Source of the DNA: Escherichia coli
Lineage (GTDB): Bacteria; Pseudomonadota; Gammaproteobacteria; Enterobacterales; Enterobacteriaceae
NCBI RefSeq assembly: GCF_024502345.1
Contig: NZ_JALDNN010000003.1
DNA length: 64,000 nt
Strand: one strand, 5' to 3'
Below, one piece after another: positions 18,038 to 26,423 of this stretch (within the stretch, counting starts at the first letter, position 1; each line of letters begins with the position of its first letter). The notes beneath the pieces are model-generated. The model did not search any database, was not told the DNA's origin, and saw nothing but the letters and a program-made list of their open reading frames with translations. The translations under genes and the position numbers were made by a program.

Positions 18038-18557
18038 ATGAGCAAATCAAAATCGATCGCGACTCTGGTTATCCATGCCGGAGATCAAGTTGACCGGGGC
18101 AATAATGCTATTTTTCCACCGATTACTACCGCCAGTTCCTTCATTCAGCCAAATTTAGGCGAAGAAGGGGAGTTTTGTTATTCCCGTTGCAGTAACCCGA
18201 CAAGATATGCATATGAAACCGCCTTGGCTGAGTTGGAAGGAGGTATCTATGCTACGGCAACCGCTTCCGGTATGGCAGCAACTGCACTTATATTGGAATT
18301 GCTACCTAAGGATTCCCATGTATTAGTAATGAAAGGGGTCTATGGCGGTACTTATCGGTTGTTTGAACGTCTGCGTAAACAAACTTCAGGTACGACATTC
18401 AGTTATGTCGATCTTAATGATCTGGCGTCAGTAGAGCGCCATATTCAAGAGAATACAGGTCTAATCTGGATCGAAACGCCCACTAACCCACTGTTGGAAT
18501 TAGTTGATATTGAAGCAGTATGCCAGGTTGCCAAAAGCAGGGGCATAATGAGCTGCG
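18038..18557 (+). pseudogene. PLP-dependent cystathionine beta-lyase/gamma-synthase family gene, 3'-truncated by IS1
   Basis: N-terminal ~173 aa of a MetB/MetC-family enzyme (LVIHAGDQ..., SRCSNPTRYAYETALAELEGG, GLIWIETPTNPLL); the reading frame runs directly into the IS1 left end. Confidence 0.7.
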
Positions 18558-18612
18558 GGTGATGCTGCCAACTTACTGATTTAGTGTATGATGGTGTTTT
18601 TGAGGTGCTCCA

Positions 18613-18888
18613 GTGGCTTCTGTTTCTATCAGCTGTCCCTCCTGTTCAGCTACTGACGGGGTGGTGCGTAACGGCAAAAGCACCGCCGGACATCAGCGCT
18701 ATCTCTGCTCTCACTGCCGTAAAACATGGCAACTGCAGTTCACTTACACCGCTTCTCAACCCGGTACGCACCAGAAAATCATTGATATGGCCATGAATGG
18801 CGTTGGATGCCGGGCAACCGCCCGCATTATGGGCGTTGGCCTCAACACGATTTTCCGCCATTTAAAAAACTCAGGCCGCAGTCGGTAA
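18613..18888 (+). CDS. insA: IS1 InsA
   Basis: [43 protein letters not shown]... matches IS1 InsA. Confidence 0.9.
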
Positions 18889-19310
18889 CCTCGCGCATAC
18901 AGCCGGGCAGTGACGTCATCGTCTGCGCGGAAATGGACGAACAGTGGGGATACGTCGGGGCTAAATCGCGCCAGCGCTGGCTGTTTTACGCGTATGACAG
19001 GCTCCGGAAGACGGTTGTGGCGCACGTATTCGGTGAACGCACTCTGGCCACACTGGAGCGTCTTCTGAGCCTGCTGTCGGCCTTTGAGGTCGTGGTATGG
19101 ATGACGGATGGCTGGCCGCTGTATGAATCCCGCCTGAAGGGAAAGCTGCACGTTATCAGCAAGCGTTACACTCAGCGCATTGAGCGACATAACCTGAATC
19201 TGAGACAACATCTGGCAAGGCTGGGACGGAAGTCACTGTCGTTCTCAAAATCGGTGGAGCTGCATGACAAGGTCATCGGGCATTATCTGAACATAAAACA
19301 CTATCATTAA
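18807..19310 (+). CDS. insB: IS1 InsB reading frame (expressed as InsAB' by -1 frameshift)
   Basis: Frame encodes ...[28 protein letters not shown]... characteristic of IS1 InsB. Confidence 0.85.
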
Positions 19311-19412: not shown

Positions 19413-20603
19413 CTACTCATCCAGCGCCTCACGCATGAACTTCGTCATCGCTTTCTTACCTGCGTCAATGTTACGGATATAGCGGGAAACCATTTCTGCA
19501 TTGCTCCAGTTACCCATCTCCATGATCTGCAAGTGCGTGTACCCGGCATCAGCAAGTTCGATGGCGCCGCCAACCCTAACGCTGTGACCAGTCCAGCATC
19601 GGGTGCCCGCTTCCTGCGGATGAAGTTCATCCCAAAACGCTTCAAAGGCCCGGAGCAATGTGTTTTTACTGAGCATACCCTCATCATCGACAATAATGGG
19701 CTTTCCATTTTTCCCGATCGGGGGGCGGGTAGGTCGGTAAGGCATATTATGATTTTTCAGCAGCGTATTGATCTCATTCCCTTTGCTCCGGAGACCCCAT
19801 CCAGGGGGCATATATCCGCTGTCCTGAAAGTTAACTGCCTGGAAGAGATAATCCTTCGGATGGCTTTGCTGGTCCCTTTTGACCATACCCATCAGCCTGA
19901 TTAGGGTGGCAGTGAGATGAGGGGTCAGATGATAGGTAAGCAGGGTACTGACAGTGGATTTTGTCCGGTACACCGTCAGGGTAAAACTGCCTGTCTGTTC
20001 ATTCAGCACAAGGTCCTGCATCCGAATGCGCCGAAGTTCTGCTGAGCGCAACAGTGTTTCAAAACCTGTCCAGATAATGCAAAGGTCTCGGAGTTTGCGC
20101 ACCGACTGTGTCGTACCGTGGGCTTTAATCAAAGCTTTCAGGTCGGAGACTAGGAATGGCGTTGCCTGACGAGTCACTTTTTGCTCTCGGGCTTCAGCTT
20201 GTTCGAGGCTTGCAAGAATACTCTTGACCTTGGATGTGATGATCCCAGGGCGATCGAGTGCTTTCCTATGGATACTGTTCAGCGCGTGCAGACAACCTTT
20301 AATGCTGCTGTGTGACAGCGAGCCCTGAAGATAGTCCAGATAGGACAACAACGGGGGTTGAGTCACCGGGAGAGAACTGGCAGGCCAGGCTTCGTTTCCC
20401 TCCTTTCCTGCATTAGCTTGGTACCACTCGTTCCAGGAACGCAGCCATTGAAGGTAAGTTTTAGCCGTGTGGTATTTCATATGAGAAAAGTAAAAAATGA
20501 GCTCCTTAAGGTCATTATTGGGCACCTCAAACGTGACCAGTTCCTGATGGAGGTCTGAGTCTTCAAACTGTCTGGTTACTGGCTTGCTGTTCATGGTGGT
20601 CAC
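19413..20603 (-). CDS. tyrosine site-specific recombinase (phage-type integrase)
   Basis: 396 aa; C-terminal catalytic region HSVRVGGAIELADAGYTHLQIMEMGNWSNAEMVSRYIRN fits the R..HxxR..Y tyrosine-recombinase pattern. Confidence 0.85.
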   Translation of the reverse strand: MTTMNSKPVTRQFEDSDLHQELVTFEVPNNDLKELIFYFSHMKYHTAKTYLQWLRSWNEWYQANAGKEGNEAWPASSLPVTQPPLLSYLDYLQGSLSHSSIKGCLHALNSIHRKALDRPGIITSKVKSILASLEQAEAREQKVTRQATPFLVSDLKALIKAHGTTQSVRKLRDLCIIWTGFETLLRSAELRRIRMQDLVLNEQTGSFTLTVYRTKSTVSTLLTYHLTPHLTATLIRLMGMVKRDQQSHPKDYLFQAVNFQDSGYMPPGWGLRSKGNEINTLLKNHNMPYRPTRPPIGKNGKPIIVDDEGMLSKNTLLRAFEAFWDELHPQEAGTRCWTGHSVRVGGAIELADAGYTHLQIMEMGNWSNAEMVSRYIRNIDAGKKAMTKFMREALDE

Positions 20604-23192: not shown

Positions 23193-23400
23193 AGAGGGAT
23201 GGGAAATTATGGGGGGGCATGGAAGCGTGAAGAGAATAAACCTGTTCGCCTTAAACAGAAACAGGCTGTTCATTTCTTACATGTGAACAGAGTACCTATC
23301 ATGATCAGACCGGTAATATAAATTGGCACAGCCATCAAAACCAATCCCAGTGGTTCTTCTTTGGTAAAAACATCCTGAATAAGTCCGTCTTCGCTTAATG

Positions 23401-23420
23401 CTAATGGACGCATACATTAG
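23401..23420. repeat. 20-bp palindrome-like site CTAATGGACGCATACATTAG, about 30 bp beyond the stop of ORF 23449..23955
   Basis: Matches the site at 23943..23962 at 17 of 20 positions in either orientation. Confidence 0.5.
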
Positions 23421-23448
23421 AATTAAGGCGTAAGGTCTAATAACTAGA

Positions 23449-23955
23449 TCAGGAGTTTCGGATTTTTGCGCGGTAGGTGTGTTTGACCCTTTCAATTGTC
23501 GCAAGAGTTGAATTCCAGTAGCGTTCAGCGTCAGAACGATAAAGATCAGCGATAGCCTCTATGGTTTTGGGGGAACAGGTTGCACTGCGATGCACACGGC
23601 CTGCCTGACCAAAGACATAGACAAGAATGGACTGGCTACCAGACCGGCCGAACAGGGAGTTGCAAAGCCGCTTCGCTGCGAGCGGTGTCAGATCGGGGAC
23701 GTCTTCCTGAGCGTTCTCGGGAACAACGAATTCCAGAATGAAGCGAAGCATCTCCGATGTCTTGAAACGCTTTACCGCCGCAGACAAACGGGCGGCACGC
23801 AGGGCAGTGTCCCAGTGGTCGCTGCTGAAATTGCGGAGCTCCGCGAGGTAATCCTCTTCCAGGCTTTCATCAGAATAATAAATGCTTTCGTAAAAGCGCT
23901 CTGCGGGTGATTGCGTCTTTTCCATTGGAGAAACCATTTTGCCTAATGTATGCAT
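23449..23955 (-). CDS. hypothetical protein (168 aa) bracketed by two related 20-bp palindromes
   Basis: ORF track; the start ATG lies within the central ATGCAT of the palindrome at 23943..23962. Confidence 0.4.
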   Translation of the reverse strand: MHTLGKMVSPMEKTQSPAERFYESIYYSDESLEEDYLAELRNFSSDHWDTALRAARLSAAVKRFKTSEMLRFILEFVVPENAQEDVPDLTPLAAKRLCNSLFGRSGSQSILVYVFGQAGRVHRSATCSPKTIEAIADLYRSDAERYWNSTLATIERVKHTYRAKIRNS

Positions 23956-23962
23956 ACGTTAG
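23943..23962. repeat. 20-bp near-perfect palindrome CTAATGTATGCATACGTTAG overlapping the start codon of ORF 23449..23955
   Basis: Self-complementary apart from 2 positions; related to the site at 23401..23420. Confidence 0.5.
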
Positions 23963-24004
23963 CATGTAGTGAAATTAAAACAAGGTAAAGACAAAGAACC
24001 GCAT

Positions 24005-24262
24005 TCAGGCGTTTCCCGGAGTAAGCAGATGGGCTGACAATTCGGCTGCGGTAATATCAAACTCAAGGTGTTTGATGAGCTCTGTTAATTGAGCGTTAAA
24101 TGCCTCCCGCTCCAGTCCGGATTGGATGAGAAAGATCAGGGCCTTTTTCAGAACGGGCGGAGTACTCGCAATGTCGAGGAGAATGTTGCCCTCAATAACA
24201 TGATCGCAATTTTCAAAAAGGTGGGCGTAACTCATTACGTGTATTCCATTTATCATTTTCAA
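24005..24262 (-). CDS. hypothetical small protein (85 aa)
   Basis: ORF track only; low coding confidence. Confidence 0.25.
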   Translation of the reverse strand: MKMINGIHVMSYAHLFENCDHVIEGNILLDIASTPPVLKKALIFLIQSGLEREAFNAQLTELIKHLEFDITAAELSAHLLTPGNA

Positions 24263-26033: not shown

Positions 26034-26423
26034 GTGAGAGAACCTCGTCCACGCCATACATTACAGGTAGTCTGTGTCCCGTCTCTGAATATACAGGATC
26101 TGGGGCTAACCAGTTTTCATAGCTGGCTCTTATCAAAAGGCTATGACACGACCAATGCCAGGAACAACCGTACTTGCTGGGCAAGGGAAGGTGGCTGGCA
26201 CCTGAAGCGATGCAGACATCTGGCAACGGGCGAAGATCATTTCTGGTTTATCGCATTCAACGGTACCGGCGGCGACATTTTTCCTGTGAAAACCCAGCAG
26301 GACTACCGTGCTGCCTACCGCAAGCTTGAAGCGTATGGATATGCACCGGCCGTTATTGAACAATTGAACACAGGCGTTGCCTATAATCTTGCTTATTCAC
26401 GGACACCTGTGGGATGCAAATAA
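26034..26423 (+). CDS. hypothetical protein whose last codons overlap the Tn7-like right end
   Basis: ORF track; final 5 codons and stop lie inside the transposon terminal sequence beginning TGTGGG at 26408, so the native 3' end may have been replaced. Confidence 0.3.
   Translation: MREPRPRHTLQVVCVPSLNIQDLGLTSFHSWLLSKGYDTTNARNNRTCWAREGGWHLKRCRHLATGEDHFWFIAFNGTGGDIFPVKTQQDYRAAYRKLEAYGYAPAVIEQLNTGVAYNLAYSRTPVGCK

Follow-up and report, generated by a model that had tools for sequence, protein, structure and literature searches.

The window analysed here, a stretch of 64,000 nucleotides (nt) of Escherichia coli DNA (contig NZ_JALDNN010000003.1), contains a small gene of the yadA family with a copy of a palindrome, hereafter P, on either side, and the same arrangement recurs on plasmids of several incompatibility (Inc) groups. 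We consider it moderately probable that YadA is a small, dimeric DNA-binding protein with P as its cognate site, the upstream P copy serving as operator and the downstream copy as a second site. A first-pass annotation of the window had offered two readings of the paired palindromes, i.e. a recombinase target or the operator of a dimeric repressor that also acts at the 3' end, and it is the latter that fits best, given that the pair is conserved, that site and protein co-vary and that the upstream copy lies over a conserved promoter. P and its partner gene are widespread on IncHI, IncI, IncF, and IncX4 resistance and virulence plasmids.

Two palindromes flank yadA in the window

The sequences CTAATGGACGCATACATTAG (positions 23401-23420) and CTAATGTATGCATACGTTAG (23943-23962) both lie beside the minus-strand open reading frame (ORF) 23449-23955, so that the two 20-bp palindromes described in the first-pass annotation as bracketing this ORF are found exactly where it had put them. 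Searching with the perfect-palindrome consensus CTAATGTATGCATACATTAG and allowing up to three mismatches returned just these two sites in the window and no match in 100 dinucleotide-preserving shuffles, which rules out a chance origin of the pair. The bare pattern CTAATG-N8-CATTAG is not significant (three occurrences in the window against 1.8 expected). The two copies are identical at 17 of 20 positions and, by comparison with the family, are the IncHI-lineage versions of the conserved plasmid palindrome P. The features concerned are the following:

23449..23925, minus strand: yadA-family gene, 158 amino acids (aa), WP_024176560, placed by family alignment and the RefSeq annotation of an identical plasmid
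23396..23425, no strand assigned: downstream (3') copy of P, 30-bp site TAATGCTAATGGAcgcaTACATTAGAATTA, core 23401-23420, three mismatches to the family consensus
23938..23967, no strand assigned: upstream (5') copy of P, 30-bp site, core 23943-23962, 23 of 30 consensus positions matched
23956..23983, minus strand: predicted σ70 promoter of yadA, -35 element TTGTTT (23983-23978), 16-nt spacer, -10 element TAACGT (23961-23956)

The start of yadA at 23925 (MEKTQSP...), 12 nt beyond the 30-bp site, is given by the family alignment as well as by the RefSeq annotation, and the earlier placement of the start codon inside the palindrome is thus probably wrong: the ATG at 23955 is merely the first ATG of the longest ORF, and both this codon and the ATG at 23937 are probably unused. 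The 3' copy of P is located 23 nt past the yadA stop codon, with convergent genes on either side, and is part of a longer imperfect hairpin (~23389-23434) with a calculated RNA folding energy of -13.2 kcal/mol (z-score -3.6). The 5' copy, the edge of which lies 12 nt ahead of the start codon, has seven mismatches to the 30-bp consensus, all within the outer arms, and folds no better than shuffled sequence (z-score -0.05), as its outer arms have decayed in this lineage.

P is conserved around yadA and common on plasmids

All fetched loci, 17 from reference genomes and 120 from metagenomes, were scanned for P. Its consensus is TTAATGCTAATGTA-YGCR-TACATTAGCATTAA with a conserved length of 30-34 bp, and its layout comprises, over 32 bp, two 14-bp inverted arms and a 4-bp centre. 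The centre is frequently asymmetric (CGCA/TGCG), and the way it points relative to the gene follows no pattern. In a near-universal arrangement TAATGCTAATGTA-YGYR-TACATTAGCATTA ends 12-16 nt ahead of the yadA start and a second copy follows 9-38 nt past the stop codon, the loci L022 and L027 having the upstream copy only. The same P surrounds yadA genes on unrelated backbones, i.e. IncHI, IncI/K, IncF, and Klebsiella plasmids as well as metagenomic contigs, even where the encoded proteins share only ~42-57% identity with that of the window. P is better conserved than the protein beside it, and its sequence is nearly invariant across plasmid families.

P is present on at least 4,215 plasmids in PLSDB and in 1,125 of 5,426 complete E. 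coli genomes (21%), where it occupies 3,776 places on plasmids versus 178 on chromosomes, every site being counted twice as P is palindromic. Further copies of the palindrome, which the first-pass annotation had named as a check on its proposal, thus exist on thousands of plasmids, whereas CTAATGTATGCATACATTAG with up to three mismatches occurs nowhere else in the window. P also occurs as a solo site beside several other genes, usually between genes facing the same way and just past stop codons. Some loci (L058:7090-7742, also L082 and L086) have three P sites in the order P, 47 bp, P, yadA, P, with the motif cacacacaaatccaccg repeated after the first and the third P; in the first P of such loci the change of the arms is fully compensated (AAGGC/GCCTT). 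No Rfam family matches P at gathering score. Sub-threshold Rfam matches to mir-155 appear at every P (e.g. L005:3899-3936) and are spurious, since UUAAUGCUAAU is identical to the seed region of miR-155.

The YadA family

The family takes its name from the uncharacterised yadA gene of the IncI1 plasmids R64 and ColIb-P9 and has no relation to the Yersinia adhesin. By tblastn YadA was found on 3,255 PLSDB plasmids, most copies being less than 60% identical to the window protein and residing on IncI/K, IncF, and Klebsiella plasmids. When 1.84 billion representative proteins were searched with a profile, a small family of 186 clusters emerged. The sequence of YadA has no match in Pfam, NCBIfam, PADLOC, PHROGs, or the PDB, Pfam also yielding none for 24 diverse members, and there is no transposase match for the window protein. 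Literature searches by sequence string and gene name returned only a coincidental oligonucleotide and the mention of yadA as a ColIb-P9 gene, function not given. Thus, the YadA family and P appear to be uncharacterised in the curated libraries and the literature searched.

The protein is basic, and its AlphaFold2 model is all-helical and confident (predicted local distance difference test score, pLDDT, of 85). Across the 24 diverse members only K59, T84, and R114 are near-invariant. Conserved blocks comprise a basic helix, AARLSAAxKRxKT, and a helix-turn-helix-like segment, TPxxAKRLxxxLFGRxxSxxxL; fold comparison gave no match. No acidic, Tyr, or Ser residue that could be catalytic is conserved across the family alignment. 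Y155, regarded as a candidate catalytic tyrosine, is invariant in close relatives, yet it is not kept family-wide. As acidic and tyrosine residues are not conserved, YadA would be a binder rather than a catalyst, and the profile as a whole, in model and alignment, is in keeping with a protein that binds nucleic acid and speaks against a recombinase or nuclease. Two large proteins of the representative set (P0158, 971 aa; P0173, 784 aa) contain 5-6 separate stretches matching the YadA profile and may be either tandem-domain proteins or fused gene calls. A second yadA-like gene in locus L141 turned out to be a frameshifted remnant.

The upstream copy of P overlaps a predicted promoter

In the window the -10 element TAACGT lies inside the left arm of the upstream P, and the predicted transcript starts near 23948. 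Upstream P thus covers the -10 element and the predicted transcription start and abuts the ribosome-binding site, i.e. the palindromic site overlaps the predicted core promoter of the very gene that it precedes. A TTGnnn element 16-18 bp upstream of a -10-like TAATGT in the left arm of P is present, oriented towards the gene, at 41 of 51 unique upstream sites. The same spacing was found at 1 of 51 sites in antisense, at 0 of 43 and 2 of 43 downstream sites, and at 16 of 146 solo sites. The -35 hexamers (TTGCCA, TTGTCA, TTGAGA, TTGATC, and others) occur in cassettes whose flanks are otherwise unrelated. As this conserved -35 element lies outside P, the functional unit must be larger than the segment from P to P. 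A terminator scan detected none at P, the stems being AT-rich and followed by no T-run in the sequences examined.

P sequence co-varies with protein divergence

Contigs were fetched for nine distant YadA members with ~19-33% identity to the window protein (alignment A5), neighbourhoods of a non-enterobacterial type with Rep3, NikA/MobC, and KfrA being among their contexts. Most of these loci possess palindromes of the same size and at the same position with changed sequence, and at loci with sequence on either side of the gene the upstream and downstream copies agree. The sites at the individual loci are:

L163: TAAGCTATTACATATATGTATTAGCTTA at -43 and +16 of the yadA homolog
L162: TAATGGATATATCCATTA upstream and CTAATGTATATATCCATTAG downstream
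L161: TAAAGTAAACGTATGCGTACGTTTACTTTA downstream; the 135 nt of upstream sequence lack a P-like site
L164: TAAGGCGAATACATATATGTATTCGCTTTA downstream only; unrelated repeats upstream
L166: two different repeated palindromes, each on both sides
L167: 40-bp palindrome at -43; contig ends 93 nt past the stop codon
L156, L159, and L160: near-canonical P

At distant homologs, the identity of which is ~20-37%, further variant palindromes are CTAATG-TATATATC-CATTAG, GTAAACGTATGCGTACGTTTAC, and GCGAATACATATATGTATTCGC. The site sequence hence co-varies with protein divergence, as would be expected of an autoregulated repressor and its operator. At L161 (760-812) a (GATGGTT)n tandem repeat directly follows the P-like palindrome downstream of the yadA homolog.

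P as a probable double-stranded DNA site

Canonical P can form a hairpin with a folding energy of -18 to -23 kcal/mol (z-scores of -4 to -7). Complementarity continues 2-4 nt past the conserved core, using variable sequence, and the arms show paired, compensated changes (AAAGC/GCTTT, AAGGC/GCCTT, CAATGC/GCATTG). When stem mismatches were oriented by the gene, there was no preference of G.U over A.C on the sense strand (11 vs 10), and therefore nothing points to selection on an RNA hairpin. We favour recognition of P as double-stranded DNA because its sequence is near-invariant, U-tract and G.U bias are absent and transcription is predicted to start within the upstream copy. Template-switch correction within quasi-palindromes is a known mutational mechanism, and the symmetric compensated changes may stem either from this process or from recognition by a symmetric dimer.

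An extreme hairpin is found on a Klebsiella michiganensis plasmid (IncFII/IncHI1B/IncP; L003:4030-4092), from which most of yadA and the upstream ORF have been deleted imprecisely. The surviving 3' palindrome has expanded to a perfect hairpin, 21-bp arms enclosing a 6-nt loop (-39.8 kcal/mol), in which unrelated yet complementary sequence has taken the place of the outer arms.

Precise loss of yadA between P copies

Two pairs of IncI/K loci differ by presence and absence of the gene. The first consists of the order yacC-P-yadA-P-small membrane-protein gene (L005) versus yacC-P-small membrane-protein gene (L010, L043), and the second belongs to a sublineage with an IS110-family insertion sequence (IS) element ~16 bp from P, in which L120 and L127 are occupied and L070 is empty. 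In both pairs the flanks match on both sides and one recombinant P is left. Such precise empty forms imply that recombination or slippage between P copies occurred in nature, and P-to-P loss probably happened at least twice. For the IncHI context of the window, a synthetic empty-junction query matched occupied forms only, and there are no inverted forms among ~25 IncI-type loci. The first-pass idea of an excisable or invertible recombinase target is supported only by comparison, through the precise occupied/empty pairs in two other, IncI/K, backbones, and neither an empty IncHI form nor any inversion was found. The simplest interpretation is a passive deletion between hairpin-prone repeats of 30-40 bp; a genuine exchange of cassettes is less likely.

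Cassettes that are 65-78% identical sit among different flanking genes, and in eight comparisons homology ends no more than 2 bp from the outer edges of P. At ~75% identity a boundary at the P edge partly reflects where conservation ends, given that the -35 element is outside P. Klebsiella cassettes that are almost identical lose homology at -94 or -334 bp and not at P. The single-P plasmids L008 and L009 and the deletion in L003, considered as possible excisions, are imprecise deletions or IS26 truncations. An occupied counterpart of the solo site on IncX4 plasmids was not found, the common 33.3-kb IncX4 plasmids breaking homology ~17 bp from P.

The first-pass annotation had also pointed to a tyrosine recombinase gene (19413-20603) about 3 kb from the palindromes. 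This integrase is not implicated, as it has no homolog in a complete IncX4 plasmid with solo P or in the 40-kb pSLT-type segment around the cassette located there, and none is annotated in the 8-kb IncI locus. Some Klebsiella-type loci have only weak integrase homologs (32-36% identity), ~5 kb away.

Two rearrangements near P may be mentioned separately. The IS110-family element ~16 bp from P (L070:5522-6674, L120, L127) is inserted in one IncI/K sublineage; members of this family are known to target palindromic repeats, and P may thus be a target of it. In the Salmonella plasmid p724-MDR (IncHI1A; L004) homology to the window breaks at 23436/23437, a few nt past the extended 3' hairpin, beyond which a universal-stress-protein/SulP transporter module follows, so that a rearrangement junction adjoins the palindrome.

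A model for P and YadA

Based on these findings we propose that a YadA dimer binds to P and that binding at the upstream copy would repress the yadA promoter, i.e. YadA would be autoregulated, because this copy overlaps the -10 element and the transcription start and abuts the ribosome-binding site. The downstream copy may be a second binding site, either for looping to the upstream P or as roadblock or insulator against transcription from outside. As the P copies are near-identical 30-40-bp repeats, the gene between them could be lost precisely by recombination or replication slippage, leaving one P, and the repeat pair may thereby make P-yadA-P behave as a discrete cassette. If YadA binds P, the two would represent a new family of DNA-binding proteins together with its operator, and, with sites common to several incompatibility groups, regulatory cross-talk could arise among plasmids that reside in one cell. 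Should P in addition drive loss or exchange of modules, it would provide an additional route to plasmid mosaicism in Enterobacteriaceae, similar to pdif in Acinetobacter.

Several observations weigh against this model. The yadA promoter hexamers are below the threshold of a strict consensus promoter scanner, and the promoter therefore stays a comparative inference. The upstream copy in the window is partly decayed, and an operator at the 3' end is unusual for a simple autorepressor. The co-variation of site and protein could instead reflect co-inheritance combined with gene conversion between the copies, or differing host factors. Moreover, solo P sites are found on plasmids without a detected second P or yadA (IncX4 and Klebsiella F-type), e.g. 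on IncX4 plasmids (L153/L155; L153:3998-4035), where a RelE/HigA-like toxin-antitoxin pair lies on one side of P and a J-domain gene on the other. In one locus (L031:2536-3350) a gene for an SOS-response-associated peptidase (SRAP) is located between two P sites, from which it follows that P is not exclusive to yadA, and on many other plasmids P is present only downstream of the SRAP gene. Taken together, the solo and SRAP cases imply that yadA in cis is not required for the presence of P, and perhaps not for its action.

Alternative explanations

The solo sites on IncX4 and Klebsiella F-type plasmids, together with the strong bias of P towards plasmids over chromosomes, would also be compatible with binding of P by a host factor or a different plasmid factor, for insulation, silencing, or maintenance, with YadA being mere cargo that is always insulated. 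We regard this as unlikely, since the flanking arrangement and the matched change of sequence persist in contexts as distant as those with Rep3, NikA/MobC, and KfrA; by eye, no known E. coli regulator consensus was recognised in P, which is a lead and not a test. Alternatively, P might be a hairpin acting as RNA or single strand, like repetitive extragenic palindromic (REP) elements, with a role in mRNA stability, attenuation, or cistron separation, and the flanking of yadA would be a by-product of each module having a hairpin at its 3' end. The strong folding of canonical P, the complementarity beyond the core with its compensated changes, and the position of most solo sites between same-facing genes and just past stop codons agree with such a role. 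It is nevertheless quite improbable: the sequence and not merely the pairing is near-invariant, there is no U-tract, no terminator in the scan, and no G.U bias on the sense strand, and the AT-rich variants at distant homologs would give weak hairpins. Furthermore, with the predicted start inside the upstream P the full hairpin would not be transcribed there, and the upstream copy in the window does not fold.

P could also be the target of a site-specific recombinase, which would make P-yadA-P an excisable and insertable cassette comparable to lox/rox, integron, or pdif systems, the enzyme being a tyrosine recombinase of plasmid or host or YadA itself as accessory or novel recombinase. The 14-4-14 layout of P resembles a simple tyrosine-recombinase site, and the precise empty forms with one P in two sublineages, the diverged cassettes that end at the P edges in different surroundings, and the P-SRAP-P locus are all compatible with mobility. 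We nevertheless consider this rather unlikely, as no recombinase is consistently near P, the window integrase lacking homologs in the IncX4 plasmid and the pSLT-type segment, as YadA has no conserved catalytic Tyr, Ser, or acidic residue and as the orientation of the asymmetric centre follows no rule. Deletion without a single inversion among the IncI-type loci is what slippage or short-homology recombination would produce, other deletions in the family are imprecise, the near-identical Klebsiella cassettes extend beyond P to their breakpoints, and the conserved -35 element is not enclosed by the P pair. A further idea, to which we give a small probability, combines both functions: P and YadA may be a previously undescribed plasmid-specific system, akin to REP/RAYT or to modules bounded by sites, with YadA as the cognate binder that gathers the P copies. 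Exchange from P to P would move or delete modules (yadA, SRAP, and others) on IncHI, IncI, IncF, IncX, and further plasmids, and no conventional recombinase fold would be involved. In that case P would be a signal, portable across incompatibility groups, for both recombination and regulation.

Comparison with known systems

Each of the near analogues of the P/yadA arrangement, i.e. REP/RAYT, plasmid repressors, pdif modules, and integron cassettes, fails in at least one defining feature. As with REP elements and their associated tyrosine transposases (RAYT), which form 'REPtrons', a small gene (~150-165 aa) lies between palindromes of 20-40 bp. Solo copies of the palindrome are also scattered over intergenic sites, often right behind stop codons, and its sequence changes with the protein across lineages. 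However, RAYTs have the HUH/Y1 transposase fold (Y1_Tnp, PF01797), whereas the modelled YadA consists of helices only, finds no match in Pfam and keeps no tyrosine across the family. REPs are found on chromosomes in large numbers; P resides on plasmids, at one to few copies per replicon, and the upstream P overlaps the predicted promoter of its gene.

A palindrome over the own promoter with more sites elsewhere on the plasmid is reminiscent of KorA/KorB of IncP-1 plasmids, of ArdK/StbA/KorA of R388, and of looping in gal and lac. YadA differs from these in having no detectable homology or fold match to KorA/KorB or ArdK/StbA-type regulators, a regular second operator just past the stop codon is unusual, and identical P sites are common to many incompatibility groups.

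With pdif modules of Acinetobacter and with integron cassettes P-yadA-P shares the short palindromic bounds, the varied plasmid contexts, and an empty form that keeps one site. The 14-4-14 layout of P differs from the 11-6-11 layout of dif, and P shows no similarity to XerC/XerD arms and lacks TTATG/CATAA arms, in comparison with the consensus sequences of dif, cer, and psi. In contrast to integron cassettes, P has no GTTRRRY core as in attC, no IntI gene or attI is present in the annotated neighbourhoods examined, and, unlike both pdif modules and integron cassettes, the yadA cassette carries its own predicted promoter. The sites loxP (13-8-13), rox (14-4-14), and FRT resemble P in size (32-34 bp), inverted arms, and a short, sometimes asymmetric centre, but for P no cognate recombinase was found, the centre orientation is inconsistent, and only deletions are seen. 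An insertion sequence would differ from P-yadA-P in that YadA has no transposase match and empty sites keep one P. Comparison by eye, which gives leads and not tests, showed no convincing match of P to Xer/dif, attC, resolvase res sites, or several E. coli regulator consensus sequences.

Setting of yadA in the window

Large E. coli plasmids contain a segment identical to the region around yadA, and IncHI-typed and related plasmids match this region at ~97-99% identity and share with it the gene order tyrosine integrase, hha, two hypothetical genes, and a CoiA-like gene. Within the window this plasmid segment sits between IS1 and a Tn7-like tnsABCD module. On the IS1 side a gene for a pyridoxal-phosphate-dependent transferase (18038-18562) is truncated by IS1 (insA/insB, 18613-19310). 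On the other side IncHI-type homology stops near 26407, where a 390-nt remnant (26034-26423) is all that is left of an HNH endonuclease gene with a length of 807 nt in IncHI plasmids; it directly adjoins Tn7-like tnsA (26528), followed by tnsB, tnsC, and tnsD. This suggests that the Tn7-like element or the boundary of its cargo cut the plasmid segment.

Upstream of yadA (24005-24262) a 16-bp insertion or deletion (~24065-24080) relative to related IncHI-type plasmids shifts the frame of a small ORF, which is annotated in the window-type plasmid and not in L002 or L004. A homolog of this small ORF follows a Hha-domain gene in the Klebsiella F-type plasmid locus L030.

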